Shown in pieces: positions 13,797-56,619 of a stretch of DNA of 64,000 bases (the first letter of the stretch is position 1; each line of letters begins with the position of its first letter). The DNA lies in NCBI GenBank assembly GCA_007119965.1, contig SKOR01000044.1, positions 8,270 to 72,269 of the forward strand, given 5' to 3'. The stretch is from Syntrophomonadaceae bacterium (GTDB lineage Bacteria > Bacillota > Dethiobacteria > DTU022). The notes beneath the pieces are model-generated. The model was not told where the DNA came from and searched no databases. It was given only the letters and a program-made list of their open reading frames with translations. Both the position numbers and the translations under genes were made by a program.

Positions 13797-13820
13797 AAAG
13801 TAATTTGCCTCTTTATAAAT

Positions 13821-13867
13821 AGCCCGGCCTGAACCAATCTTTTGGAACAGGCCGGGCTATTTATTTG
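13821..13867 (+). terminator. rho-independent terminator
   Basis: The stem is AGCCCGGCCTG ... CAGGCCGGGCT (11 bp), followed by ATTTATTTG. Confidence 0.75.
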
Positions 13868-14318: not shown

Positions 14319-16877
14319 ATGAAATTCAACAAAATAAACTCTAAAGATATAAAGTCGTTAATTGCTGTTTTTATCGTAATATCAATGCTGCTGCTTCCCC
14401 TGGGCGCATTTGCAGGAAGTGGAGACGCAAGTGATGGTTCAGATACTTTAACCACCACAACCGGCAGCCCAGATGATTCAAACACTTCAGGCTCATCGGA
14501 CAGCGGAGATTCAGGCAGCACAGAAACCACCGACAGCAGTAATGATGGTGGAGAAAGCAGCCCAGGCAGTGATCGGGACTCAGAAAGCAGCGATGATGAA
14601 GCCGGAAAGGATGACGAAAGTGCAGATGACGGCACGGTTGAAATCAATACTACCGGCACTGAAGATGAAGAAGAAAATGAACCTGGTGCTGTAGAAGAAG
14701 GAGATAAGAAGGAAAGCACCTTCGATGACCAGGTTAGCGAAAACGATCAAGAATTAACAGCTGAAAATGCTGACGGAACCGGCACTGAAGAAAAAGGTGA
14801 TAAAGTTGTCGATGAAGAATCCGATGCACCTGAAACCGGAACCGATACTGTAGAAGATGATGAAGAAGCAACGGTTACTCCCATCCTGAAGAGCAATAGT
14901 GAATCAGACTCCCAGAAGCAGGGCAGCGATGATGAAAAGGAATCCGAAACCCCCTTTTCAGGCGATGATGATGAACAGGGAGCGGAAGAGCCAAATAGTG
15001 ACGGGTACGAGGATCAGAAGTTTGACGGCAACACATATTCTGCAGTAATAAAGCATATTGAAGAGCATGCAGACTATGATTCTGATTACGCAAAACATCT
15101 CGGTCTCGATGAGCTGCGATATTTTGAAGCGACGATAACCGAGATTGGCCAGAGCAGAATCGGTTCTGTTCAGATTACTGTTCCTGAAGGCTTCGATCTA
15201 AAAAATGAGGACTTCAGCTGGTCTTTTTCATCATTTGACAGTAACGCTTTTGCTGCCGGGGAATATAAGGACAATTGGGATGGCAGCATTGATGAAGATA
15301 CCGGTACCGTATCGCTATGGGCTAAGGCTGTTGATTATTACCTTTATTTCGGGGAATCGGTAACAGCCTTGTTTAAAGCTAAAACTCCTGCTGTCATAAG
15401 TCCGGAGGCCGAAGATAGGACTAAAGGCGAGCTGCCCGGATATGATGAAAATGGAGATTACAAGATTGGCATCTATGACTTTGAGCTGAGTGTTTGGACC
15501 AATGCCACAACAGATGAACTGGATGCAGGTGGAATCCGCATCCCCCTTTATGAAGATGGTTCAAATGCCGGAGACGGAACAGGAGTGGGAGTAAGCAATG
15601 ACCGCTTAAATACAATCTCGGAAGATCACTCGCTCACAATGGTTTGGGTCGGAGATGATGATTTTCATGAAGCACTGGAAGCCGCTACTGGTTATAACGT
15701 TATCGATAGTGCAGATAATCATCAGGGGCAAAGCAGTTACAGTGTAGTATTGAAAAGCGTAGTTGATGGTTCGCCCTCGACTTTCAACTTTGAGATTACA
15801 CACGATAAAGGGTCAGCGGGACAGAGTGCTCAGGCAATGGAAGAACTATGGATTATACTGCCTGCCGGTTTTGCTGCCGATGCCGGTTCTATCAGTAATT
15901 TGGCAGTTCAATATGATGATAACGGCGATATCACTACTGATTCAATCGAATTCGATTTTGCTAACGGCAGGATAGTTTGGAAGGGTAACTTAGGGCAACC
16001 AGAAATAACTGTATTTAATATAAGCTTTAATGCGACAGTTGGCCCTGATTCCGGTAATGTTTTTCAGACGGAAGCCCTGTGGTTCCCTAACGCAAATACC
16101 TCAAATAACGTTCCGAATTTGCATGCAAGTGAGGAACCGGCAGAAGTTGCTTTTCCGATATTCTCATCACAATCACTACCTTCTGAGCCGGTGGACGATG
16201 AAGGTTTTGAGGAAGATTTAAGCCCGACCGGTGATGAAAACGGCGGGGACGATAATAATATAATCCCCGGTGACGAACCAGTCGATGATCCTGACGATCC
16301 TGTCACCGGCACACCTGGCCTCACTGCTGCACCGTTGGGTGCCCCGGCTGCACCGGCCGCTGTCCCAGGGGCAGCACCTGAAGATGCACCGGCAGCTCCG
16401 GTGGAAGTTCCTGCGGAAGCAGCTGCCGAGGAAGCGCCGGTTTCGATTACTGAAGATTTTCCGCCGGAAGCACCACAGGTAGAGCCGGTTGCAGAAGCGG
16501 AAGCCGGAAGCTTTAATTTCTGGCCCCTGCTGCTGATCTTAATTCCCGCCCTGCTTTGGTTCCTGTGGGCCCGCCTGGTTTTGGTCCGCGTGCCAAACGA
16601 AAAAGGCGAGTATAGAACAGTAGCCCGCAAGCTAGCCCGGCGCAAAGATAAAAGGTGGTTTGTAGATGTTGAAAAACAACTGCAAGAATACCTGGAAAAA
16701 CACCGCGAAGTCCTGGTTGACTTCAGGGGCGGGCTGATCAAAGACGCTAAGAAGGCCGTATATTCTGGCGAGACAACCCTAAGTGAGGGTGAAAAGAGAT
16801 TCGCCCTGATAAACAGCCGGAGTTTCGTAAACTGGGTAGATGAGCTGAAAGAACGCACAGAGCGCATTGCAGGATAA
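14319..16877 (+). CDS. large secreted acidic cell-surface protein with C-terminal TM anchor and about 100-aa basic cytoplasmic tail; function unknown
   Basis: It has a signal peptide (MKFNKINSKDIKSLIAVFIVISMLLLPLGAFAGSG) and about 200 aa of D/E/S/T/G-rich low-complexity sequence. A roughly 350-aa middle domain follows, then a Pro/Ala-rich linker (PAAPAAVPGAAPEDAPAAPVEVPAEAAAEEAP). Next comes a TM helix (FWPLLLILIPALLWFLWARLVLV) and a K/R/E-rich tail. The upstream region is long and AT-rich. Confidence 0.7.
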   Translation: MKFNKINSKDIKSLIAVFIVISMLLLPLGAFAGSGDASDGSDTLTTTTGSPDDSNTSGSSDSGDSGSTETTDSSNDGGESSPGSDRDSESSDDEAGKDDESADDGTVEINTTGTEDEEENEPGAVEEGDKKESTFDDQVSENDQELTAENADGTGTEEKGDKVVDEESDAPETGTDTVEDDEEATVTPILKSNSESDSQKQGSDDEKESETPFSGDDDEQGAEEPNSDGYEDQKFDGNTYSAVIKHIEEHADYDSDYAKHLGLDELRYFEATITEIGQSRIGSVQITVPEGFDLKNEDFSWSFSSFDSNAFAAGEYKDNWDGSIDEDTGTVSLWAKAVDYYLYFGESVTALFKAKTPAVISPEAEDRTKGELPGYDENGDYKIGIYDFELSVWTNATTDELDAGGIRIPLYEDGSNAGDGTGVGVSNDRLNTISEDHSLTMVWVGDDDFHEALEAATGYNVIDSADNHQGQSSYSVVLKSVVDGSPSTFNFEITHDKGSAGQSAQAMEELWIILPAGFAADAGSISNLAVQYDDNGDITTDSIEFDFANGRIVWKGNLGQPEITVFNISFNATVGPDSGNVFQTEALWFPNANTSNNVPNLHASEEPAEVAFPIFSSQSLPSEPVDDEGFEEDLSPTGDENGGDDNNIIPGDEPVDDPDDPVTGTPGLTAAPLGAPAAPAAVPGAAPEDAPAAPVEVPAEAAAEEAPVSITEDFPPEAPQVEPVAEAEAGSFNFWPLLLILIPALLWFLWARLVLVRVPNEKGEYRTVARKLARRKDKRWFVDVEKQLQEYLEKHREVLVDFRGGLIKDAKKAVYSGETTLSEGEKRFALINSRSFVNWVDELKERTERIAG

Positions 16878-16969: not shown

Positions 16970-19717
16970 TCAATATTCTTTTGCCACTTCTTCCAGGAAG
17001 TATTTCACCGCTTGCGGGTCAAAGTGGCGGCCGCTTTCTTTTCGTATATAATCAAGGGCCGCTTCCCTTTTCCAGGCCAGCCTGTAGGGGCGGTTGCTGG
17101 TCAGGGCGTCAAAAACGTCAACCACGGTAAAGATGCGGGCTGCAAGTGGGATTTCCTCGCCCTTCAGGCCGCGGGGGTAGCCGCTGCCGTCCCACTTTTC
17201 ATGGTGGCAGTAGGGTATTTCCAGGGCCGAGCGAAGATAGCTGATCGGGGCCAGCAGTTCATAGGCAAATTTTGGGTGCTCCCGCATAACAGCCCACTCT
17301 TCATTTGTCAGTTTACCGGTTTTTAGCAAGATAGAGTCGGGGATACCCACTTTCCCGATATCATGCAGCAGGGCGCCCCGGCGAATGTGGATCAGCTCGG
17401 AGTCCGGGACTCCGATAGCTTTAGCCAGGTGGACGGCCATTTCTGTGACCCTTTTACTGTGCCCCTCTGTTTCATGATCGCGCAGGTCGAGGGCCCGCGA
17501 CCACCCCTCGATAGTAGCTTCATAGGACAAAGATAAATCAAGATTGGCCTGTTTGAGGTTGTCAAAGAGCTGGCTGTTGTAAACGGCAATGGCAGCCTGG
17601 TCGGCCAGGGCTTCTAAGAAATCGAGCCACTCTTTTTCATGGTTATAAGGTCGGGACTCGAAAGCAGCAAGCACTCCTTTAACCTCGTTTTTAACGATTA
17701 ACGGCACACTTATGCAGCACCTGAACTCTTCTGCGGCGAGCATTTGAGACCATCTGTTATCAAAATAAACGGCTGAGTCCCTGCTGATAATTGTGCGGCG
17801 CTCCCGGGCAGTTCTGGCGAGAGCATTTTCACCGGGTTTCAGGCGAACCTGCTCTAGTGCGTTTGTTTTAAAACCCTGCCCCGCAGCGAATTCAAGCTCA
17901 TTAAGCTGGGGGTTAAAGGTGAACACAGCAGCAGAATTAACATGGAGCTGGTTGACAACCTCTTTGAGAAGGACATCCATCGTCAGGTGGAAGTCCTGGC
18001 TGGTAGTTATTGCTTTATCAACGGCCCGTGTGGCCTCCAGTTTGTGCAGTTGGTATACTGTTTCCTCGTAAAGGCTGATCCGTTGGATGGCTGTTCCGGC
18101 CATTGCGGCCAGGGAAGAAAGCAGCTTAAGCTCCCCGCAGCTTATTTCGCGCGGGCTGGGAACGGAAACAGCTAAGACCCCCACTATCTTCTGCCCTGCC
18201 TGAAGAGGTAAAAATGTTCCTGCCCAGCCCGGCGGTATCTGGGTTCTAATATCAGGTTTAACAAGGGGATCCCCAGCCAGATCGCTGGTGATATAAGGTT
18301 TCCCTGACATGAATACTTTTCCGCTGACACCTTCGTCAGATTTCAGGTTTGCTTCATCCAGCTGTGAAAACCAACCGTGGGCTGCAGAGAAGTGCAGGTT
18401 TTCATTAGAGGTGTGGTAGAGCCAGATTGCCCCGGCTTCTGTGTTTATAGCGGCCAGGACTTCATCGAGCAGGATGGGCAGCATCTCTTCAAGGGTTTCG
18501 GCACTGCGCAGGGCGGATGAAACTTTATAGAGCGTTTCCAGTTCAGCAAGTCGTTTTTGAAGCGATTCTTCAGCCTTTTTGTGCTCAGTAATATCAGCAA
18601 CAGAAACCGAGACACGGGAATAGGTGCTTTCATGGTCTGACGCTACAGACCAGTGCACCTGAACAAACAAGAGTTCTCCCTCCAGGGTCAGGTGGGGCAA
18701 TTCAAAAAAAAGTTCTTTTTCCGACTCAGCAATCGCAAGCAGTATATCTATAAAGGCTTCATGTGATTCTTTTAAAAATATATTGTTGAATTTAGAGAAA
18801 AATTCTTCTTTGGATTTTGCTTTATACAAATTTATGGTCGCCCGGTTAACGTCGATGATTTGTACCAGGCCGGCCAATTCCTGCACTAAGTCCGGGTGCT
18901 GCACAAGATAAGAGCGCAGGTCCTGGTCTAACCTGTTTTTCAGTTCATCAATGCGCTGTTTAACTGCTGAGAAATCCTCTTCCCATAATGAAATCGGAGA
19001 ATCTTCAAATAGCTGGCGATATTTCCTTTCACTCTGCAGTAATATTTCCCGGGACTGCTTTTCTCTTTCCAGGTTATTCAGCCAGTGTTCAGTTTGCCGT
19101 TCGCTTTTTTTGTGATTCAGGTATTCATCCGGCTCAATGTAGTATAAGTTCCGGTAGGCCTGGGTGCCCCAGATTAACAGTGGATGGGTCAGCATGGCTC
19201 CTTTTATTGTTTCAGAGTCGTGTTTTGAGCGGTTATATTGGCAGAGCGCCAGGCAGGAGTAGCCGGGGAAAAAGTCGCGGTTTAGTTTTGCTTCGTATCC
19301 GAGCAGTTTTTCTGAACCAGATTTTTCGTGTAAAGCTGAACTTATTTCACCGGTTACCCGCAGGGCGGAGTATCCCTGGCTGAGGGCCTTTTCTGTTTCA
19401 GCGATCATGAAGTCAGGGTCAAAACAGCCTTCCCAGGTGGGGGTATCTTTCTTGTTGAATATGTTAAACTGACCCCTGTTTTCAGCTTCTGACAGGTCCA
19501 GACCGGCATCCAGAAAATAAGTTTTAACCTGTTGGTTAGAGGCATCATCAGCAACATAAATGCATTTCTCGTTCCGTTCAAAGCCTGAAAGGATGAAAGG
19601 GACGATTACCTCTACCCACTCTTCGTAAGAATTGTAAATAAGGCAAAGATGATCATGAGGCTCGAGAGAGGCCAAAAGTTCATTTAAATCAGGCGAAAAT
19701 TCCTTGTCGTGATTCAT
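16970..19717 (-). CDS. MEDS-PAS-GAF-GAF-HD-GYP multidomain signalling phosphodiesterase
   Basis: The 915-aa product starts with 'DHLCLIYNSYEEW...EKCIYV' (a MEDS-like domain). Coiled-coil/PAS and two GAF-like regions follow, then a C-terminal HD-GYP ('HDIGKVGIP', 'HHEKWDGSGYPRG'). Confidence 0.85.
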   Translation of the reverse strand: MNHDKEFSPDLNELLASLEPHDHLCLIYNSYEEWVEVIVPFILSGFERNEKCIYVADDASNQQVKTYFLDAGLDLSEAENRGQFNIFNKKDTPTWEGCFDPDFMIAETEKALSQGYSALRVTGEISSALHEKSGSEKLLGYEAKLNRDFFPGYSCLALCQYNRSKHDSETIKGAMLTHPLLIWGTQAYRNLYYIEPDEYLNHKKSERQTEHWLNNLEREKQSREILLQSERKYRQLFEDSPISLWEEDFSAVKQRIDELKNRLDQDLRSYLVQHPDLVQELAGLVQIIDVNRATINLYKAKSKEEFFSKFNNIFLKESHEAFIDILLAIAESEKELFFELPHLTLEGELLFVQVHWSVASDHESTYSRVSVSVADITEHKKAEESLQKRLAELETLYKVSSALRSAETLEEMLPILLDEVLAAINTEAGAIWLYHTSNENLHFSAAHGWFSQLDEANLKSDEGVSGKVFMSGKPYITSDLAGDPLVKPDIRTQIPPGWAGTFLPLQAGQKIVGVLAVSVPSPREISCGELKLLSSLAAMAGTAIQRISLYEETVYQLHKLEATRAVDKAITTSQDFHLTMDVLLKEVVNQLHVNSAAVFTFNPQLNELEFAAGQGFKTNALEQVRLKPGENALARTARERRTIISRDSAVYFDNRWSQMLAAEEFRCCISVPLIVKNEVKGVLAAFESRPYNHEKEWLDFLEALADQAAIAVYNSQLFDNLKQANLDLSLSYEATIEGWSRALDLRDHETEGHSKRVTEMAVHLAKAIGVPDSELIHIRRGALLHDIGKVGIPDSILLKTGKLTNEEWAVMREHPKFAYELLAPISYLRSALEIPYCHHEKWDGSGYPRGLKGEEIPLAARIFTVVDVFDALTSNRPYRLAWKREAALDYIRKESGRHFDPQAVKYFLEEVAKEY

Positions 19718-20372: not shown

Positions 20373-21584
20373 ATGAAACAAGAGCATTCAGGAATCACCA
20401 GTCGGATAACTTTATATTATTTTGTCCTGGCCAACCTTTATATTTATGTTTCAGACCAGCTGTTGTTTATGTATGTTACCGATCCTGCCATACTCGTTCG
20501 CTGGCAAACCTATAAAGGGTGGATCTATATAGCAGTGACAACCCTGTTACTCTATATTCTGTTAAAAACCCAGATCAAGAAACTACTCTCAGAAGTGGAG
20601 GAACGTAAGAAGGCTGAAGCTGCTGAAAGGGCCTCGGCAATTCACTGGCAAAAAACATTTGATGCCAGCGCAGATGCAATATGCCTTGTAGATCGCAGCA
20701 AAAAAATTCTGCGCGCTAATGCTGCGCTGGCTAACCTGGCAGGTCAGGATGTTGAAGAAATAATCGGAAAAAACTGTTGTGACACTGTGCACAAAGGGGA
20801 AGGTGAATTTCCGGATTGCCCGCTTCCGGATACGGGCAACTTGCAGTCCCGTGAAGAGACTGAAGTTCAAATAGAAGACCGCTGGTATCACATCAGTATA
20901 GATCCGGTCATGGATGAAAAAAACAGGCTGCAAAACATGGTACATATAATGCGTGATATTACACAACGGAAACAAATGGAGGCCAACCTTCAGCAGGTCA
21001 ACCAGGACCTTCTGCAGGCGTACGATGCTACAATTGAAGGCTGGTCCAGGGCTCTCGACCTGCGTGATCATGATACGGAAGGCCACAGCAAGCGTGTAAC
21101 TGAAGAAACAGTATACCTGGCTGCAGTACATGGGGTCCCGGAGCCTGAATTGGTCCATATCCGCCGCGGGGCACTGCTGCATGATATCGGCAAAGTGGGT
21201 ATCCCTGACTCCATTTTGCATAAAACCGGTAAATTAAATCCCAATGAATGGAAAATTATGCGTGAACACCCGAAACTTGCCTATGATCTGCTGGCCCCGA
21301 TCGATTACCTGCAGCAGGCTTTGGAAATACCCTACTGCCACCATGAAAAATGGGACGGCAGCGGCTACCCCCGCGGCCTGAAAGGGGAAGAGATTCCCCT
21401 GGCAGCGCGTATCTTTGCCGTGATTGATGTTTTTGACGCCCTGACCAGTGATCGTCCGTATCGACCGGCCTGGAACCGTAAAGCGGCCCTGAAACATATC
21501 CTGAACGAAAGCGGCAGGCATTTTGACCCACAAATTGTAAAATTGTTCCTTGAGCTTGTTGATCCTGGCAGGGATGGCACCTAA
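20373..21584 (+). CDS. membrane-anchored PAS-HD-GYP c-di-GMP phosphodiesterase (paralogue of 16970..19717)
   Basis: It has two N-terminal TM helices and a PAS domain. The C-terminal roughly 190-aa HD-GYP domain is nearly identical to that of the upstream gene ('EGWSRALDLRDH[DE]TEGHSKRVTE...HHEKWDGSGYPRGLKGEEIPLAARIF'). Confidence 0.88.
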   Translation: MKQEHSGITSRITLYYFVLANLYIYVSDQLLFMYVTDPAILVRWQTYKGWIYIAVTTLLLYILLKTQIKKLLSEVEERKKAEAAERASAIHWQKTFDASADAICLVDRSKKILRANAALANLAGQDVEEIIGKNCCDTVHKGEGEFPDCPLPDTGNLQSREETEVQIEDRWYHISIDPVMDEKNRLQNMVHIMRDITQRKQMEANLQQVNQDLLQAYDATIEGWSRALDLRDHDTEGHSKRVTEETVYLAAVHGVPEPELVHIRRGALLHDIGKVGIPDSILHKTGKLNPNEWKIMREHPKLAYDLLAPIDYLQQALEIPYCHHEKWDGSGYPRGLKGEEIPLAARIFAVIDVFDALTSDRPYRPAWNRKAALKHILNESGRHFDPQIVKLFLELVDPGRDGT

Positions 21585-23672: not shown

Positions 23673-24087
23673 AGGCTGCAGTAGAAAAGGCAGTTTATAA
23701 AAGCAGAGAGCGGAAATGTTGATGACATTAATCTTTATAGTATGGTTTGTACTACTGTGTGCACTGGTGTCTGGCATTTTTACGGGATGGTATGATGATT
23801 CCTTTAGAAGGCGAGGTGGTCTGGTTGCTGCTGGAACCGATTATAACGCCTGATAATAGCAAATCAGCATAAGTGATTTGAAAGCTCTCTTTGCTCAGGC
23901 GATGTCTGAGGGTGCTGCAACTTTACCCTGCCAGGTGCTGTTAGTCTAACCCGTGATCTAAAAAACCATCCACAGCTGCAACTGATGGAGGATATCTTAG
24001 AAGATAAAAGAATTACTATATTATAAAGCGGTTAAGTAAACAGCTAAACCGGGCAGCTTACCTTAAATAAGGAGGTCTGAATAAAAT

Positions 24088-24714
24088 ATGTTCGTCAGAG
24101 ATTATATGTCCGCCGATCCGATCACCATTGAGCCCAATGATTCAGTTGGTGATGCTCTGGAGCTTTTAAAAGACCATGCCATCAGGCGCCTTCCGGTAGT
24201 GTCGAAGGGCAGGCTTGTCGGCCTGGTAACTAAAACAGATCTGATCAAGGCTTCACCTTCTCCGGCTACCAGCCTCTCTATTCATGAAATTAACTATCTC
24301 TACCCCAAAATAAAGATTAGGGACATCATGACGAAAGAAGTTGTTACAATCGGTCCTGGTGCTGCTATCGAAGAGGCTGCAGTTACAATGCGAGAAAACA
24401 AGTTTGGCACCCTTGTTGTTGCTGAGAAAGGCGCCTTAGTCGGTTTGATTACTGAAAGCGACCTGTTTAAAGCTTTTATTGATGTTTTCAGTTTTGATCG
24501 CCCCGGAATCAGGGTTATGGTCGCCTTCGATGATGAGGTGGGTGAATTGGGCAAGCTCGCCTCGCTGATCAGTTCCCTGGATATTTTTATTATCAGCCTG
24601 ATTATAACCTATGCTGTGGACGGCAGGGCTAATGTTGTGATGCGCCTGAAGAGCGATCACAGAGAGATGGTAGTTGATGAACTGGAGAAGAGCGGATACG
24701 ATGTAATCGGTTGA
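24088..24714 (+). CDS. CBS-pair domain protein with C-terminal ACT-like domain
   Basis: Two CBS motifs ('RRLPVV..GRLVGLVTKTDL' and 'GTLVVAEKGALVGLITESDL') are present. Confidence 0.75.
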   Translation: MFVRDYMSADPITIEPNDSVGDALELLKDHAIRRLPVVSKGRLVGLVTKTDLIKASPSPATSLSIHEINYLYPKIKIRDIMTKEVVTIGPGAAIEEAAVTMRENKFGTLVVAEKGALVGLITESDLFKAFIDVFSFDRPGIRVMVAFDDEVGELGKLASLISSLDIFIISLIITYAVDGRANVVMRLKSDHREMVVDELEKSGYDVIG

Positions 24715-24721
24715 TGCAAAA

Positions 24722-24934
24722 GGTGTCTAGGGGACGGTTCCTGAAACACCCTCTTGCGTCTAAGGGTGTCTAGGGGACGGTTCCTGAAACACCCTCTTGC
24801 GTCTAAGGGAATGAGTTAAAACTGCTGTGGAATTGAGGTTCGGGGTTTGGATTTTGTTTAAGCGTAAAAAAGGTGTTTCAGGAACCGTCCCCTATGCACT
24901 AAAAAGGTGTTTCAGGAACCGTCCCCTATGCACT
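24722..24934. repeat. composite palindromic repeat block: 2x43-bp tandem unit (24722-24807), spacer, then 2x34-bp tandem unit (24867-24934) carrying the inverted 23-nt core TAGGGGACGGTTCCTGAAACACC
   Basis: Exact tandem copies were read directly from the sequence. The A and B units are reverse complements over the core, so the region can fold into a long hairpin between convergent genes. The same core recurs at 53692-53760. Confidence 0.85.
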
Positions 24935-25690
24935 TTTTGTTTCGGCGACGAAGGTAAGTTTTGGGTCGGAGTTGGCTGACGGCTCCAGGCTGAAGCTGGG
25001 GTAGGTGCCCAGGATTTTGAACCCGGTTTCTTCTAATACCCTGGTAACCAGATCCGGTTCATGGTCTTTTTCATGGTGGTTCTCCTGAAATTTCTTGTAT
25101 AAGCCGTCTGTTGTTTGTTGAAAAACGGTCAGGTGGGCTGACCAGAGGTCTTCTTTAGAACTGTAGCTGCTTTCCACGATTAAGGTGAAATCATCTTGAT
25201 CGGCCCAGGATAGGCTTTTGGTGTCGCCGCCTGAGCGGAGCGACGGGCGGGTCAGATCGAAGATAAAAAGAGAAGCAGGGTTCAGGGCACTGTAAACCTG
25301 GTTAATCGCTTCGATTAATTGTTGTTCACTGAGGAGATAGTTTAAGCCGTCCTGAAACAGCAGGGCTAAGTCGTATTTTTCCGGCAGCTCAAGGCGGCAG
25401 AGGTTTTGTTCATAAAATTTAACCGGCAGCCTTTTTTGGGCTGTCTTGCTGCGGGCCCGTTCGAGCATTGCAGGGGACAGGTCAACACCTGCGGTTTGAT
25501 AGCCTCTGTAGGCGAAAGGCAGTGTAGAGCTGCCTGTCCCGCAGGCCAGGTCGACTATGGAACGGGGTTTTTTTGCGAAGCGGACGAGCAGCTGTTCCAC
25601 ATAATCGGCCCAGGCTTCATAATCGACACTGCACATAATCTGATCGTAAATATCGGCGAAACCGGTGTAGGCCTGGCTGGTTTTTTTCAC
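24926..25690 (-). CDS. class I SAM-dependent methyltransferase
   Basis: 'VDLACGTGSSTL' is methyltransferase motif I. The product is 254 aa. The stop codon overlaps the last repeat unit. Confidence 0.75.
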   Translation of the reverse strand: MKKTSQAYTGFADIYDQIMCSVDYEAWADYVEQLLVRFAKKPRSIVDLACGTGSSTLPFAYRGYQTAGVDLSPAMLERARSKTAQKRLPVKFYEQNLCRLELPEKYDLALLFQDGLNYLLSEQQLIEAINQVYSALNPASLFIFDLTRPSLRSGGDTKSLSWADQDDFTLIVESSYSSKEDLWSAHLTVFQQTTDGLYKKFQENHHEKDHEPDLVTRVLEETGFKILGTYPSFSLEPSANSDPKLTFVAETKSA

Positions 25691-28786: not shown

Positions 28787-29107
28787 ATGTCAAAAAAACT
28801 AATGGTTAGCTTATTAGTGGCAGTTGTTGCTGTAACCCTATTGGTATCTGTCGCAGCAGCCCAGGAAAACGATTCAACCCTGGAATCTCTTTACGAACAA
28901 ATGCATGAGCTGCGCCGCCAGGTTATCGAAAGACAGGTTGAGCTCGGTGTTTTCAGCGCTGAAGAAGGCGATGAACGATTGGAGTTTATGGATCAGCGTT
29001 TTGAGGAAAGACGTGAAAGCGGCTCCGGCTGGTTTTCCGGTATGCACGGCTGGAGATGGGGCAGCGGCGATTCTGCTCGGGGGTACGGTCACTGCCGGAA
29101 TTATTAA
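28787..29107 (+). CDS. small secreted protein (signal peptide, 106 aa), unknown function
   Basis: The signal peptide is MSKKLMVSLLVAVVAVTLLVSVAAA. The C-terminus is charged and Gly/Trp-rich. A terminator follows. Confidence 0.5.
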   Translation: MSKKLMVSLLVAVVAVTLLVSVAAAQENDSTLESLYEQMHELRRQVIERQVELGVFSAEEGDERLEFMDQRFEERRESGSGWFSGMHGWRWGSGDSARGYGHCRNY

Positions 29108-29126
29108 ATCGAAAAAATGAAACTGC

Positions 29127-29165
29127 ATAGATAGGCCGCCTCCGTGCGGCCTATCTATCTTTTTG
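29127..29165 (+). terminator. rho-independent terminator
   Basis: The stem is ATAGATAGGCCGC...GCGGCCTATCTAT (13 bp), followed by CTTTTTG. Confidence 0.8.
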
Positions 29166-29205
29166 CTGTCCGATTGTTTACAATATAGATAGGCTTGCTT
29201 AGGAG

Positions 29206-29910
29206 TTGAGCAGATTGGATGCGCCAAAAATCCTTGTTGTTGATGATGAAATAAAAATAACCCGCGTTCTCCAGGCTTATTTGGAAAGGGAAAAGTATCC
29301 TGTGCTTACTGCTCATAACGGACAGGAAGCTTTGAGGCTGGCCCGGGAAGAAAAACCCGACCTGATAATCCTCGACCTTATGCTGCCAATTGTAAGCGGC
29401 GAAGAGGTTTGCCGTCAGCTTCGCCAGGAGGGTTCCCGGGTTCCAATTATTATGCTCACAGCAAAAACTGCCCTTGAAGAGAAAGTAAAAGGCCTGGCCA
29501 TTGGCGCTGATGATTATGTCGTGAAACCGTTCAGCCCGCAGGAGATAGTTGCCAGGGTTAAGTCGCACCTCAGGCGTAGTGACCCCGACCACGGCCCGCT
29601 TACAGATGTGCTGGTCCTTTCCGGAGGTGCTCTGGAGATCGACATCCCGGCCCATCGGGTCAGCTGGGAAAACCGCAGTATTGATCTGACCCCGACTGAA
29701 TTTAATTTATTGGTACACCTGGCCCGCCAGCCAAAACGCGTTTTTACCCGCGCACAGCTTGCCGATGCGATTTTTGATTACGACAGTATCATGGAGGAGC
29801 GGACTGTCGATGCCCATATAAAAAACCTCCGTCAGAAAATGCAGCGCGCAGGAGCTCCGCTTTTAGTAAAGACAATATACGGGGTGGGTTACAAATATGA
29901 AGAAAATTGA
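29206..29910 (+). CDS. OmpR-family two-component response regulator
   Basis: It has a receiver domain ('ILVVDDE', 'DLIILDLMLP', 'K' at 'VVKPF') and a winged-helix DNA-binding C-terminus ('GVGYKY'). Confidence 0.9.
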   Translation: MSRLDAPKILVVDDEIKITRVLQAYLEREKYPVLTAHNGQEALRLAREEKPDLIILDLMLPIVSGEEVCRQLRQEGSRVPIIMLTAKTALEEKVKGLAIGADDYVVKPFSPQEIVARVKSHLRRSDPDHGPLTDVLVLSGGALEIDIPAHRVSWENRSIDLTPTEFNLLVHLARQPKRVFTRAQLADAIFDYDSIMEERTVDAHIKNLRQKMQRAGAPLLVKTIYGVGYKYEEN

Positions 29911-31381
29911 TCTGAAATCACCCCCGCCCCTGTGGGTCCGGATTGTATTTTACTTTTTACTGCTATCTGCAGTGATCCTGCTGCTGTTTCAGGCCATATT
30001 TGGCTATTCACTGGAAAGGCATCTCCAGGCTTACAGCAGAGACCGGGAAGAAACCCTGAACAGCCAGATTGTAAATACCTTAATAGAGTATTATTCGGCA
30101 GCCGGCAGCTGGAGCGGAATTCAGATGCCTCTGCTTCATGCAGCCATGAGCACCGGCACCCGTTTACTACTGTCCGATGCGGAAGGGCAGCTTATTGCCG
30201 ATACCGGCCTGGGCAGACATCAGCATATGCGGATGGTGCCGGCGCAGCAGCCGGATTTATCAGGCACTGAGAACTATTACTATGTTTTAAAAGAAGGGGA
30301 TGTCACAATTGGCGAATTGACCATTGCCCACCCGGTAACGGCAGAAATCAGTATCTGGCGGCAGCAGGACTTGATACTACAAGATGCATTATCCAGATCC
30401 CTGTTGTGGACCGGCTTAATCGCGATCAGCGCTGCTCTCGTTTTAGGCGTACTGTTCTCCCGCCGGCTAACCAGCCCGCTGGAAGAGATATCCAAAGCCG
30501 CTGTCCGGATCACCAGGGGCGATTATTCCCGCCGGCTTCCCGGTTACCGGAGCCGGGAACTCAACAACCTGGCGCAGTGTTTTAACCAATTGACCCATCA
30601 CCTTCAGGAACTTGAAAAACTTCGGAAACGTTCCGTTGCCGATATCTCGCACGAACTGAGAACGCCGCTGGCTACGCTGCGCAGTTATGTCGAGGCAGTC
30701 AGAGATGGGGTGCTGCCGGCCGATGAAAATACCATGGCTGTCCTGTTGGACGAAGTTATGCACTTAAGCCGGGTGGCTGTAGCCATGGATGAACTGGCCA
30801 GCGCAGAGAGCAAACAGCAGGATCAGGCCGCCCGTGAAACGGTTAACCTGAACCGGTTTTTACAGGACAAGGTTGCTTCTTTCGAGCCTCTTTACCGGGG
30901 CAAAGGGCTGGCTCTCAAACTTAGCCTGCCGGAAAAGCAGATCAATGCTTTTCTGGATCCTGCCGCGCTGCGGAAAATTTTCGGCAACCTCCTTGAGAAT
31001 GCTTACCGTTATACCGGCCAGGGCGGAGAAGTCGAGGTGACCCTTCAGGAAAACCCGGAATATGATCCCGGGGCTGTTCCGCCCCTGGGGCAGGAATCCA
31101 TGCCTGATCAGCCAGCGGATCAGGGGTTGAAAGATATGGTGCTGATTAAGGTAAGGGATAGCGGTATCGGTATCCGGCAGGAACATCTGCCCTATATTTT
31201 TGAACGCTTCTTCCGGGCCGATTCTTCCCGGGAAAGGGAGCAGAGCAGGGCCGGTTCCGGAATCGGTCTGTCCCTGGTCAGGGAGTTAACCAGGTTAGCC
31301 GGCGGGTTTATCTCCGTCAGCAGCCAACCCGGCCAGGGCACAACATTCTACCTGTACCTGGAGCAGCAAAACAGGTTATGA
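29897..31381 (+). CDS. sensor histidine kinase (TM-sensor-HAMP-HisKA-HATPase)
   Basis: The H-box is 'SHELRTPL', the N-box 'LLENAYRY' and the G-boxes 'DSGIGI' and 'GSGIGLSL'. It overlaps the RR gene by 14 nt. Confidence 0.9.
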   Translation: MKKIDLKSPPPLWVRIVFYFLLLSAVILLLFQAIFGYSLERHLQAYSRDREETLNSQIVNTLIEYYSAAGSWSGIQMPLLHAAMSTGTRLLLSDAEGQLIADTGLGRHQHMRMVPAQQPDLSGTENYYYVLKEGDVTIGELTIAHPVTAEISIWRQQDLILQDALSRSLLWTGLIAISAALVLGVLFSRRLTSPLEEISKAAVRITRGDYSRRLPGYRSRELNNLAQCFNQLTHHLQELEKLRKRSVADISHELRTPLATLRSYVEAVRDGVLPADENTMAVLLDEVMHLSRVAVAMDELASAESKQQDQAARETVNLNRFLQDKVASFEPLYRGKGLALKLSLPEKQINAFLDPAALRKIFGNLLENAYRYTGQGGEVEVTLQENPEYDPGAVPPLGQESMPDQPADQGLKDMVLIKVRDSGIGIRQEHLPYIFERFFRADSSREREQSRAGSGIGLSLVRELTRLAGGFISVSSQPGQGTTFYLYLEQQNRL

Positions 31382-48735: not shown

Positions 48736-48800
48736 GCTTTACAGTTTGAAGCGGCCGGATGCCGGCTTGTAATTTATTTGGCAGCAATTTAAGTTTTACA

Positions 48801-48850
48801 TAGAATTAGAAATGCTGAGGCAGTTTTATGCCTCAGCATTTCTAATTCTA
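48801..48850. terminator. perfect 21-bp inverted repeat hairpin (bidirectional terminator candidate) between csoR and the convergent cop operon
   Basis: TAGAATTAGAAATGCTGAGGC - AGTTTTAT - GCCTCAGCATTTCTAATTCTA. Confidence 0.6.
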
Positions 48851-48951
48851 TTATCCCTTCAGCACTACAAACAGATTTCAACAAATTACTCATTGCATAA
48901 TATTCCTGCGAAAAAGCTGCAGCCTGAATCTATACTGAATGTTTCAGCAGA

Positions 48952-53270: not shown

Positions 53271-53654
53271 ATGAAAAAAATGGCTAATATGATCGAGAAT
53301 TTTAAAAAGGTGATTGAAGAGTTAAAATCAGACCTGGGCGATGGGTTGCTATCCGCCGATATATGGCATATCAGGGATGCCCAGGGGCTGGCCGGGTATA
53401 ATACAAACCCCAAGGCAACAGCGCTATTCAACGAGGTTACTCGCGTGCTCGGAAAAACCCTGCAAGGTTCGGAATACCCCGGCTTGGGTGATTACTATTC
53501 AGTTCACCTCGATAACAACTCCCTGGTTGTGATTATTCTATTCGGCGACTACCAGCTTGGCATGACAGTCGATCTCTCAAAGACCACAATGGGATTATTG
53601 ATGAGCGTGGTTATGCCAAAGATACACAAAATGCTAAAAGAGTCGATATCTTAA
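53271..53654 (+). CDS. hypothetical protein, possibly roadblock/LC7-like
   Basis: The 127-aa product has a weak pattern of alternating hydrophobic beta-strands ('SLVVIILFGDYQLGMTV'). There is no firm motif. Confidence 0.35.
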   Translation: MKKMANMIENFKKVIEELKSDLGDGLLSADIWHIRDAQGLAGYNTNPKATALFNEVTRVLGKTLQGSEYPGLGDYYSVHLDNNSLVVIILFGDYQLGMTVDLSKTTMGLLMSVVMPKIHKMLKESIS

Positions 53655-53691: not shown

Positions 53692-53760
53692 AAAAAGGTG
53701 TTTCAGGAACCGTCCCCTATGCACCCAAAAGGTGTTTCAGGGACGGTTCCTGAAACACCC
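53692..53760. repeat. second copy of the TAGGGGACGGTTCCTGAAACACC palindromic repeat family (B-type unit plus perfect 11-bp-stem hairpin GGTGTTTCAGG-GACGGTT-CCTGAAACACC)
   Basis: The B-unit sequence AAAAAGGTGTTTCAGGAACCGTCCCCTATGCAC is shared exactly with 24867-24934. Confidence 0.85.
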
Positions 53761-53780
53761 GCCGGAAGGAGCCTATCAGC

Positions 53781-55115
53781 ATTAATAATCAAACAGACCC
53801 AAATAAAACAGTATTAAGCTGGCCCCTGGCCGGTGACCCCGGTTCCTGGCGTTCAACGCTCTACGGGCTGCAATGGTTTGCCTTTGCCACTGCTAATGTT
53901 GCAGTGCTCCCGGTTTTTTTAGGAACTCAACTGGGGCTGGACCAGGCCGGCATCGCCGATTACGCCCAGAGAATGTTTTTCTTTGTCGGGTTGGCTTCCC
54001 TTCTCCAGGTAACTTTTGGTCACCGCCTGCCAATTATTGAAGGCCCTGCTGCTCCCTGGTGGGCAGTTATTGTCAGCCTGGCTGGGATTGCCACGGCCAT
54101 CGGTAAACCCCTTGAATTGGTGCGCACCGACCTGGTCGGGGCGATGCTGCTCTGCGGAGCGCTACTGGTGGTGCTCGGTTTTACCGGTATAGTTGGCCGG
54201 GTTATGAAACTTTTTACACCGCCGGTCACCGGGTGTGTCCTCATTCTACTATGCTTACAGTTAAGCGGGACCTTTGTCAGCGGTATCCTGGGGGCAAGCG
54301 CTGTAGATAATGGTTTTAATTATGCCCCGGTATTGATCAGTGCAGTGGTTATTGCCACGATAGTCATGCTTTCCATGAAAGCTCCTCCCCTGTTGAGGAG
54401 CATTAACGTGCTGATTGGTCTTGGCGTGGGATGGGCTCTCTATGCCTTATTCGTAAGTGAACCTGCAGAAGCGATTGAGCCGGCCCAGATTGTTCAACTG
54501 CCCCGGCTTTTTTCCTGGGGCTGGCCAACCCTTGATCCCGGCGTTACTATTACCGGGGTCATAATTTCATTAATCATCCTCGCCAATCTTCTGGCCAGTA
54601 TCGCAGCAATGTCTAAAGCTACCGATAAGCCCATGGAAGCAAAGGATTACAACAGGGCCGTTGTATTTAACGGGGTAAGCAACTTGCTGGCCGGAATCGG
54701 TGCATCAGTAGGCACGGTACCCTTTGCTGCTTCGACCGGCCTGGTAAAAATATCAGGGGTGGCATCGCGCAAACCGTTTTTTATCTTCTGCCTGTTGATG
54801 ATAGCAACCGGGTTTTTCCCGCAGGTAGGCGCATTCCTGGCCAGGATACCCCAGCCTGTCGGTTATGCCGTTTTGCTGGCCGCTTTTACCCAGATCTTAA
54901 TTGTCGGGCTCCAGGAACTGAAAAAACTGAACCTCGATCAGCGCGATTCCTTTGTAATCGGCCTGACCATTCTTGTCGGGGCCGGCGTGGCATCTCTGCC
55001 CGACGCCGCCCTGGTCGGCCTTCCCGATCTGGCACGCTACATCTTTGGAAACGCCTTGATTGTAGGGATAATTATTTGTTTGCTCATGGAACATGTTATT
55101 ATCCCCCGCAAATAG
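53781..55115 (+). CDS. NCS2-family nucleobase (xanthine/uracil-type) permease; N-terminus extended upstream of track start, probable non-canonical (ATT/ATC) initiation
   Basis: It is a polytopic membrane protein. The frame is open from 53754 and encodes the conserved N-terminal 'LYGLQWFAFATANVAVLPVFLG' (an NCS2 GLQ motif) upstream of the GTG at 53904. The strong SD GGAAGGAG lies at 53764-53771. There is no ATG/GTG/TTG between the SD and the conserved segment. Confidence 0.55.
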   Translation: MNNQTDPNKTVLSWPLAGDPGSWRSTLYGLQWFAFATANVAVLPVFLGTQLGLDQAGIADYAQRMFFFVGLASLLQVTFGHRLPIIEGPAAPWWAVIVSLAGIATAIGKPLELVRTDLVGAMLLCGALLVVLGFTGIVGRVMKLFTPPVTGCVLILLCLQLSGTFVSGILGASAVDNGFNYAPVLISAVVIATIVMLSMKAPPLLRSINVLIGLGVGWALYALFVSEPAEAIEPAQIVQLPRLFSWGWPTLDPGVTITGVIISLIILANLLASIAAMSKATDKPMEAKDYNRAVVFNGVSNLLAGIGASVGTVPFAASTGLVKISGVASRKPFFIFCLLMIATGFFPQVGAFLARIPQPVGYAVLLAAFTQILIVGLQELKKLNLDQRDSFVIGLTILVGAGVASLPDAALVGLPDLARYIFGNALIVGIIICLLMEHVIIPRK

Positions 55116-55230: not shown

Positions 55231-56619
55231 TTAAAGGCCTGCCCTTTCCTTGAAACGTTCTACAGAGTTAATCTTGATATCGAGGGCCTTGGCAATATTG
55301 AACTTTGCTTCAATACCCTTGGGGAAGTTGTTCAGGTCAAACGAACGCCCCATACCCTTATCAGCCCTAATATCATACATCTTATCTGAATCGCTTAGAT
55401 CGATGGGGTCGACCCCCAGTTTTTCCGCTACATACTTTTTGGCTTCGTCGATCTTCATGCTCTTAGCGAGCTGTATCCGCAGAACCAGATCTCCGGCTGT
55501 GCGAATGCCACTCATGCAGGAAGAAACTCCGTGAGCCACTTCGAGGCTAAAAGTATCGCCTACCCCTATCTATAACCCGTCGGCCTTGCCGATTTCAATC
55601 AGCGCTTTATCGGCCCTGGTTACAGCGTCGATCGGCGGAATCTCGCTGGTCGGGATACCGCCGACACCCATGCCGACGTTAACGTGCACCGGGATATCTG
55701 CTGCCTCGGTGCAGGCTTTCACAAAGGTTACAGCGCGGGCAATGCCCCAGGGAAAGGACATCTTGGTGTTTGTATTGATTACGGCACCGAAAATGTTGGC
55801 CCCCGCTTTTTCTGCCAGCTTGACCTGTTTGTGCGGGTAAAGTCCGGCTACCCTTGTCCCGTCGTATTCAATTTTACCGTGCATCCCTAACACAAATTCA
55901 CCGGCGGCACCCATTTCAACACCAAAATCAGGGTATTTTTCCTTAATTTTTTCGGTAGCCAGCAGTCCGGCGAGAAAATCTGCATCACCGGAAGCTCCGC
56001 AGGTGTCGAGGTTAATGCCGTCAGCACCGGCCGCATACATTTCACCGGCCACGAAAACTATATCGCGGACAGCATGTTCAACCGCTTCTTCCTGGGCGGC
56101 TCGTGATTCATCAATCTTTCCCAACGGCAGTAGCTCTGACCAGTTTTCTACCGGACCGTCAGGCTTTGTGTAGAGGCCAAGATTCGGCATAGAACCGTAA
56201 AGAACCGGCATAACTGCGTTAAGCTGGGCAAGCTCCATGACCGGGGTTTCATTGTGAATAATCTGCTTTACAGCCTTGTAGCTGTAGTCCATGTTGCCGA
56301 TATCGACAGAGTCGGCACCTAAAATCTTTTCACTGACCAATACAGCCATCGAACGTTCCATGGCAATATTGGCATGATAGGTCATCTTACAGCTGCCCGA
56401 GTCGGAAGTGCTCACCACTTCCCGGCCTCGCTTGACACCTACAATGTTTCCCGGCATCGTAATGATCTCGAAGAGGTAATCCATCTCTTCTTCGGTCAAC
56501 TCAGGAATTTTACCGCGTTTAGCGGCATCTTCCACGCCTTTTTTTATTTCATCCTTAATTTCTTCCGCGGACATATAGACGCCGGAACCGTCGCCCATCC
56601 GTGTAAAAAATTCACCCAA
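55231..56619 (-). CDS. mtbB: dimethylamine:corrinoid methyltransferase MtbB with in-frame UAG (pyrrolysine codon) at 55570..55572
   Basis: The TTG start at 56619 lies behind AAGGAGGAG. The 349 codons up to UAG contain 'MPNLGLYTKPDGP', 'GADGINLDT', 'VLGMHGKIEYDG', 'VAGLYPH' and 'AGANIFGAV'. These match what I recall of MtbB ('MPNMGLYY', 'LAGLWPH', 'AGANVFGPV'). After the UAG the same frame continues for 112 sense codons ('IGVGDTFSLEVAHGVSSCMSGIRTAGDLVLRIQLAKSMKIDEAKKYVAEKLGVD...'), with no SD and only a GTG. The total of 462 codons matches the roughly 467-aa MtbB, which has pyrrolysine near 356. Confidence 0.8.

Follow-up and report, generated by a model that had tools for sequence, protein, structure and literature searches.

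A probable REP/BIME-like interspersed repeat in the intergenic DNA of an uncultured soda-lake Firmicute

A block of repeats at 24722-24934 of the 64,000-nt stretch of DNA analysed here (the window) is probably a four-copy cluster of a new, lineage-specific short interspersed repeat that is REP/BIME-like and, in its arrangement, REPIN-like. Eight units are documented at three loci on two contigs of the same MAG, all of them intergenic, and the unit is found singly, in an inverted pair and in tandem dimers, with a 23-nt core that is identical (23/23) in all full units. The class is an ordinary one, that of small selfish or structural repeats, while the family itself is previously undescribed and its host is an uncultured soda-lake Firmicute. 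Proteobacteria have well-studied short interspersed palindromic repeats; to our knowledge, few such repeats have been described in Firmicutes, and we know of none from uncultured soda-lake lineages.

The repeat block and its 29-nt unit

The block was described in a first-pass annotation, made from the letters of the sequence, as two exact 43-bp and two exact 34-bp tandem arrays with 59 bp between them. TRF and a repeat finder reproduced this layout: TRF reported 24722-24809 (period 43, 2.0 copies, 100% match) and 24867-24934 (period 34, 2.0 copies, 100% match), and the repeat finder returned inverted arms of 33-39 nt that are 87-88% complementary. The block therefore consists of two exact 43-nt and two exact 34-nt units, and the reverse-complement relationship that had been noticed between the cores of the two sets is correct, as the core lies twice on the minus strand and twice on the plus strand, giving a unit order of minus, minus, plus, plus. 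A 21-nt form of the core, GGTGTTTCAGGAACCGTCCCC, is found at all four of these positions (two minus, two plus) and twice more at 53697-53759, a total of six occurrences in the window against 0.00 expected by chance (100 shuffles). The block and its neighbours are as follows.

24088-24714, plus strand: CBS-pair/ACT-domain gene, convergent with the methyltransferase gene; ends (stop codon) 7 nt ahead of the first unit
24722-24764, minus strand: A-type unit 1, with a 43-nt period; a 29-nt imperfect palindrome, GGTGTCTAGGG-GACGGTT-CCTGAAACACC, at 24722-24750, followed by the 14-nt tail CTCTTGCGTCTAAG
24765-24807, minus strand: A-type unit 2, an exact tandem copy of A-type unit 1; missing from assembly L001
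24808-24866, no strand: 59-nt spacer of unique sequence, whose outer parts prolong the inverted repeat imperfectly (GCGTCTAAG / TTAAGCGTA)
24867-24900, plus strand: B-type unit 1, with a 34-nt period; AAAAA followed by GGTGTTTCAGG-AACCGTC-CCCTATGCAC
24901-24934, plus strand: B-type unit 2, an exact tandem copy of B-type unit 1; missing from L001; its minus strand supplies K-S-A and TAG of the methyltransferase
24926-25690, minus strand: class I SAM-dependent methyltransferase gene, with the conserved end ...KLTFVAET followed by the repeat-derived KSA*; stop codon TAG at 24926-24928

As had been annotated, the block lies between convergent genes, the CBS/ACT gene on the plus strand and the methyltransferase gene on the minus strand, and it fills the entire 211-nt gap between them. 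The full 2+2 block measures 213 nt and a 1+1 form found in one assembly 136 nt, neither with a credible ORF, and no direct repeat of 4-9 nt was found flanking the block. A CRISPR array, already set aside in the first-pass annotation, was rejected, as there are only two direct copies per side, 5-14 nt separate the palindromes and the two sides are inverted. An integron attC site or gene cassette was likewise rejected, there being no GTTRRRY/RYYYAAC core and no integrase.

When all copies are aligned in one orientation, the true unit emerges as a 29-nt imperfect palindrome made up of an 11-nt arm, the 7-nt loop GACGGTT and a second 11-nt arm, CCTGAAACACC. The invariant 23-nt stretch, TAGGGGACGGTTCCTGAAACACC, corresponds to the last two G of the first arm, the loop and the second arm, so the unit runs from a variable arm (GGTG-YNTAGG-G) through the loop to an invariant arm, usually with an A/T run before or after it. 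The first arm reads GGTGTCTAGGG in units with the 43-nt period (A) and (A/G)GTGCATAGGG in those with the 34-nt period (B). At locus 3, the solo copy, it is CGTGCTTAGGG, and in the copy at 53731-53759 it is GGTGTTTCAGG, which yields a perfect 11-bp palindrome. Over the five variants, 6, 7, 7, 8 and 11 of the 11 arm positions form Watson-Crick pairs, and each imperfect variant has one additional G-T. Compared with random arms, the pairing of the imperfect variants has P = 0.034-0.0012, the lowest value belonging to the A-type arms (8 Watson-Crick pairs and 1 G-T out of 11, P=0.0012). The palindrome GTTTCAGGAAC, which had previously been picked out within the core, amounts to a GTT/AAC pair only and is not the relevant symmetry, because the palindrome is the 29-nt unit with its 11-nt arms around GACGGTT.

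At 29 nt, this imperfect palindrome falls within the 20-40 nt size range of REP elements. Imperfect units folded alone are no stabler than shuffled controls, whether as DNA (-3.2 to -3.8 kcal/mol, z -0.1 to -0.8) or as RNA (z +0.5 to -1.6), and they therefore lack the stable stem-loop that a REP unit forms alone; only the perfect copy at 53731-53759 is stable by itself (DNA, -11.8 kcal/mol, z -4.45). The classical REP 5' GTAG is also absent from all units, with CTAG, ATAG or TTAG in the variable arm instead. In REP palindromes, GTAG at the 5' side is reportedly conserved and serves RAYT recognition and cleavage.

The repeated entity is the unit only. No second match to the 57-59-nt centre of the block was found in the window, in L014 or L063, or in relatives (~140 kb of local and related DNA). 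Because the 59-nt centre is unique and only the units recur, the label of miniature mobile element, which had been offered for the block as a whole, is not supported.

Other repeated sequences were observed in the window. A 533-nt inverted repeat (16992-17524 / 21021-21553, 76% complementarity) joins a MEDS-GAF-HD gene (16970-19717, minus strand) and a PAS-HD gene (20373-21584, plus strand), and represents diverged paralogous HD-GYP-type domains in opposite orientation. Short acidic tandem repeats at 14652-14866 belong to an 852-aa ORF (14319-16877, plus strand) that has no Pfam match at E<=1e-5.

Copies at other loci and comparison with relatives

The second locus (53692-53759) lies 29 kb from the block, between a 124-aa hypothetical gene and a gene for a xanthine/uracil-type permease, and contains two units.

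53692-53724, plus strand: B-type unit, matching the B units of locus 1 at 33/33 positions
53731-53759, minus strand: perfect-palindrome unit, GGTGTTTCAGG-GACGGTT-CCTGAAACACC, spaced 34 nt from the preceding B unit and ending 4 nt short of the permease RBS GGAAGGAG (53764-53771)

The order here is plus, minus, with the GGGG ends pointing inward. Locus 2 shares 59 nt with 24867-24925 at 92% identity, and the unit-to-unit spacing is 34 nt both between the B units of locus 1 and between the B unit and the perfect unit of locus 2; no other linker recurs. The third locus is a solo B-like unit on a 235,856-nt contig of the same MAG, other than the contig of locus 1, and was found in GCA_007128785.1 (SKWR01000007.1) and GCA_007136415.1. 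It was reached by way of a JGI metagenome scan for the core, in which a single contig matched, and then by the identical rhodanese protein. The unit lies 11 nt upstream of the -35 box of the rhodanese promoter, which is near-consensus (TTGCAA-17-TATAAT). With 86% of the window coding, the intergenic placement of all three loci has a chance probability of ~0.003. The first-pass annotation had proposed a dispersed repeat family, provided that the core was not confined to two loci, and this proposal is borne out by three intergenic loci on two contigs.

Searches of wider collections returned no further copies. The exact 20-mer core had 0 matches in 185,579 species genomes. This result is silent on how many copies the source genome has, as that collection lacks the source species; the nearest relatives it contains are soda-lake 'Syntrophomonadaceae bacterium' MAGs, in which a flanking protein is 67-73% identical. 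Viral contigs gave 0 matches for the core 20-mer, while 17-mer matches were due to chance and do not extend, and blastn against plasmids and phages gave no match. An nhmmer profile search detected no degenerate copies of the units, and Rfam, at both gathering and permissive thresholds, returned only generic sub-threshold hairpins (miRNA-precursor) that were far below threshold. Logan k=31 contigs from eight sequencing runs all end inside units (L004-L006 at window position 24749, and also L008-L012). On the CBS side these ends fall 2-3 nt short of the point expected from the local tandem repeat alone, which hints at a further genomic copy sharing AAGGTGTCTAGGGGACGGTTCCTGAAACAC.

The annotation of the permease beside locus 2 (window 53751-53906) warrants comment. 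Its called GTG start (53904) removes 16 residues of the Pfam domain, which starts at residue 26 of a translation begun at 53781. The frame contains no ATG, GTG or TTG after the stop at 53751-53753, and the strong RBS GGAAGGAG (53764-53771), directly after the locus 2 repeat, stands ahead of ATC 53775 and ATT 53781; on these grounds, the start codon is probably non-canonical. The gene content also identifies the organism as a pyrrolysine-using soda-lake Firmicute, because the dimethylamine methyltransferase gene MtbB (Pfam Dimeth_Pyl; 55231-56619, minus strand) has a single in-frame TAG that is read through (...KADGL*IGVGD...) and a PYLIS_2 (Rfam) match is present at 55473-55572 (43.3 bits, gathering score 36).

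The window is ~99.9% identical to several metagenome assemblies. Two NCBI MAGs have the same 2+2 arrangement, whereas the ENA assembly L001, whose flanks are 99.9% identical, is 77 nt shorter and has exactly one 43-nt and one 34-nt unit, reflecting either a real strain polymorphism or an assembly collapse. An inverton was rejected, as the spacer has the same orientation in 4/4 assemblies and there is no promoter to switch. Relatives with orthologues that are 78-86% identical have no unit at matching places or elsewhere (~450 kb searched with at most 5 mismatches). In the closest of these, L018, in which the methyltransferase is 83% identical, the P-type ATPase and methyltransferase genes are directly convergent and 68 nt apart, and the spacer between them has neither the CBS gene nor the repeat. 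L018 and the window become homologous again at the nucleotide level precisely where the last unit ends on its outer side (…CA[C/T] on one side of the edge, TTTTTGTTTC on the other). Compared with L018, window positions 23673-24934 amount to an indel of 1.25 kb that comprises the CBS/ACT gene, the 415-nt spacer upstream of it and the block.

A clean empty site was found for none of the three loci among relatives that are 81-86% identical and rearranged or diverged (L018, L067, L069): L018 is without the block but also without the CBS gene, and L067 and L069 are diverged or rearranged. Neither a target-site duplication nor an excision of the block was seen. All three loci coincide with differences in gene order from the nearest relatives, although this coincidence with breakpoints is not significant because around half of all gene adjacencies are broken in these comparisons anyway. 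In the 81% relative (L069/L070), the 124-aa gene (53280-53654) is followed by a block of DUF2680, response-regulator and histidine-kinase genes; in the window, this block lies at 28874-31381, 22 kb away, beside PBP1A.

These comparisons bear on whether the units could be sites for a DNA-binding protein, such as a regulator or a nucleoid-structuring or recombination protein, kept identical by selection and not by copying. The solo unit placed 11 nt ahead of the -35 box in a near-consensus promoter, the position of locus 2 directly against the permease RBS, and the gene-order differences at all three loci would suit such sites. The 23/23 identity in all full units is far tighter than is usual for regulator sites, though, the four copies of the block lie between convergent genes where there is no promoter to regulate, an 85% relative retains the promoter without the unit, and the breakpoint coincidence carries no significance. 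We therefore regard this explanation as very unlikely. A sigma-54 promoter was rejected owing to wrong spacing. Near-identical copies that are absent from relatives and strictly intergenic argue instead for recent copying, and not for convergent binding sites.

Folding of the block and the ends of the flanking genes

The last three codons of the methyltransferase gene (K-S-A) and its stop are read from the last unit, so the overlap with the stop codon seen in the first-pass annotation is real, with TAG 24926-24928 inside that unit. Homologues of this methyltransferase end in ...KLTFVAE(T/K) with short unrelated tails, while the protein of the window ends in ...AETKSA*. The repeat thus stands in place of the original 3' end of this ORF. 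As for the T-run on the right of the block, it is a piece of the ancestral methyltransferase reading frame, because homology with L018 resumes at the unit edge and KSA* is read from the repeat.

The block had also been expected to form an extended hairpin, and a very long one is indeed predicted for RNA from both strands (z of about -13). The plus-strand transcript is predicted to fold into two stacked perfect stems at -134.5 kcal/mol (z -13.3) and the minus-strand transcript into two stacked perfect stems at -115.3 kcal/mol (z -13.1). In the 1+1 form of L001, the cores are 99 nt apart and the DNA is predicted to fold end to end (-35.8 kcal/mol, z -7.2), and at locus 2 a 20-bp stem is predicted. 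After the stem of the block, the plus-strand transcript continues with UUUUUGUUU and the minus-strand transcript with UUUUG. A consensus terminator scan called neither the block nor any other terminator-like site in the spacer; the block was missed because the scan has a loop limit of 8 nt and the loop of the block is longer. Since a predicted stem of ~30 + 30 bp (-115 to -135 kcal/mol) is flanked by an A-tract and a U-tract, the block is probably a bidirectional transcript-end element for the two convergent genes. Termination is not a general role of the repeat family, because at locus 2 no gene lies upstream on the strand that has the U-tract, and locus 3 consists of one unit only; these loci abut the permease RBS and sit upstream of a promoter, respectively.

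A purely local explanation would see in the block nothing but an intrinsic terminator hairpin duplicated in place, with no dispersed family. The exactness of the tandem copies, the A/T tracts beside the hairpin and a site between convergent genes, which suits a terminator, are all compatible with this idea, but it is contradicted by loci 2 and 3, with identical units 29 kb away and on another contig, and the T-run to the right of the block derives from the methyltransferase gene itself. We consider it extremely improbable. Elsewhere in the window, two perfect or near-perfect 23-nt hairpins with 4-6-nt loops are present at 48800-48851, just after a CsoR-like repressor gene, and at 13815-13864, after a 117-aa ORF; both probably serve as ordinary terminators or operators and have no connection with the repeat family.

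Likeness to known repeats and possible mode of spread

The units most closely resemble the REP, BIME and REPIN elements of Proteobacteria such as Escherichia coli and Pseudomonas fluorescens. In both cases a short imperfect palindrome is strictly extragenic and is present as singlets, as inverted doublets that form long hairpins and as clusters, with non-conserved spacers and in both orientations. REPINs of P. fluorescens are mobilised by RAYT Y1 transposases. The site of the block, between convergent genes, matches a known bias of REP elements, and BIMEs affect mRNA stability (PMC3184786). REPINs have been described as inverted REP doublets in both orientations, with non-conserved spacers of variable length, together with singlets in decay and long perfect palindromes that excision leaves behind (PMC3337134). 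Inverted units with a non-conserved spacer that together give one long hairpin are seen here in the L001 1+1 form and at locus 2. At the latter, a normal unit also has a long perfect palindrome as its neighbour, the pattern that results when a REPIN centre is excised; this palindrome has the form a-p^c-a^c and may, by analogy, hint at excision or transposition of a doublet.

Differences from these systems are also apparent. The sequence is unrelated to that of known REP elements and the host is a Clostridia-class Firmicute; the 5' GTAG is missing, the imperfect units fold weakly, and BIMEs do not typically contain direct tandem dimers such as those seen here with periods of 34 and 43 nt. Unlike for REPINs, no RAYT was identified, and the copy number may be low. 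The REP/BIME-like label of the first-pass annotation thus stands as far as extragenic placement, imperfect palindromes in single, inverted and tandem form, and the long hairpin are concerned, but not for GTAG or for the folding of single units. The cognate REP-associated tyrosine transposase that it had suggested looking for, whose gene often has REPs on its flanks, did not materialise: no RAYT (Y1_Tnp) or other transposase is encoded among the ~75 genes of the 64-kb window and ~20 kb of extra DNA from the same genome, together roughly 3% of that genome. RAYT Group 1 genes do occur in Clostridia and are linked to low-abundance repeats only (PMC5581495), which would fit a low-copy family.

Other families of small repeats share some of these features. 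Correia elements (CREE) of Neisseria, like other TA-flanked bacterial MITEs, are intergenic, ~100-160 nt long and TA-flanked, with inverted ends of at least ~26 nt, and they form a long mRNA hairpin that can affect transcription or RNA processing of their neighbours. Correia elements repeat as wholes, with a conserved centre and a duplicated TA, whereas here only the ends are repeated and TA lies inside the arm. BOX and SPRITE elements of Streptococcus pneumoniae are modular intergenic repeats of a Firmicute in which the number of tandem sub-units varies by strain, and SPRITE is terminator-like; the BOX modules A, B and C and their sequences are unrelated to the units described here, and BOX arrays are direct repeats, not inverted sets. 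The ends of the block also recall a GGGG...ACGCTAAG layout, which we take to be that of 38-bp Tn3-family repeats: as in Tn3-derived TIMEs, they start with GGGG and continue ~35 nt inward to ...GCGTCTAAG / ...ACGCTTAA. TIMEs of this kind have 38-bp Tn3-type IRs and a 5-bp AT-rich direct repeat (PMC4133298). The block has no such direct repeat (its flanks are GTCTA and TATGC), sequence outside GGGG is conserved, locus 2 is arranged inside-out and neither a Tn3 transposase nor a res site is present. A Tn3-type end was rejected on the absence of the 5-bp duplication.

The strongest competing account is that the block is a MITE, a non-autonomous remnant of a DDE-type IS whose 21-36-nt inverted ends are transposase-binding TIRs and which inserted at TA (IS630/Tc1-like, as Correia elements). 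Extra tandem units would then have arisen by secondary duplication or would serve as multiple binding sites, the single unit of locus 3 would represent a solo end and the ends of the parent IS would read TAGGGGACGG... MITEs are defined by TIRs, often a TA duplication, and a stable fold (PMC4133298, PMC3184786). The block has TIRs, lies under the 300-400 nt size limit and holds no transposase gene; the inverted repeat is prolonged imperfectly to ~36 nt (GGGG...GCGTCTAAG versus GGGG...ACGCTTAAA), the 136-nt 1+1 form is non-coding and folds end to end, and the right edge of the DNA that is novel relative to L018 is a unit end. TA adjoins the GGGG end, on the outer side of the core, in 7/8 units, but the next 6 nt outward are conserved too (GTG-Y-N-TA), and TA is therefore part of the palindromic arm and probably not target DNA. 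Furthermore, the element is not repeated as a whole, its centre being unique, locus 2 has the presumed outer GGGG ends on its inner side, there is no 5-bp duplication of the Tn3 type (GTCTA versus TATGC), and neither a parent IS in the DNA examined nor a clean empty site was found. A MITE origin is accordingly unlikely. A quite unlikely further reading, in which the units are REP-like, would be a previously undescribed system of this alkaliphilic, Clostridia-class lineage with an invariant arm and loop and a hypervariable arm, whose tandem or inverted dimers are spread by an unknown, possibly non-RAYT enzyme and serve as joints for the insertion or reshuffling of gene blocks such as that of the CBS gene.

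If the units are REP/BIME-like, as we favour, an enzyme whose gene lies elsewhere in the genome would insert copies of single units or inverted doublets at new sites; the best candidate is a hairpin-recognising HUH/Y1 transposase of the RAYT type that acts on single-stranded DNA, with a DDE transposase as the alternative. Tandem copies would be gained and lost by slippage or unequal recombination. Either convergent transcript could fold the block into a terminator and/or a barrier to 3' exonucleases, and such a transcript-end function would be a by-product or a co-opted use, and not the reason for the existence of the repeat.

A repeat of this kind can rewrite the 3' end of a gene and occupy a convergent spacer, where it probably stops transcripts from both sides. 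Assemblies built with short k-mers break at its sites, and if the number of units does vary between strains that are 99.9% identical, the repeat would be a useful strain marker in metagenomes. If a cognate enzyme is found, the REP/RAYT-type relationship between host and element would be extended to a new phylum-level context.
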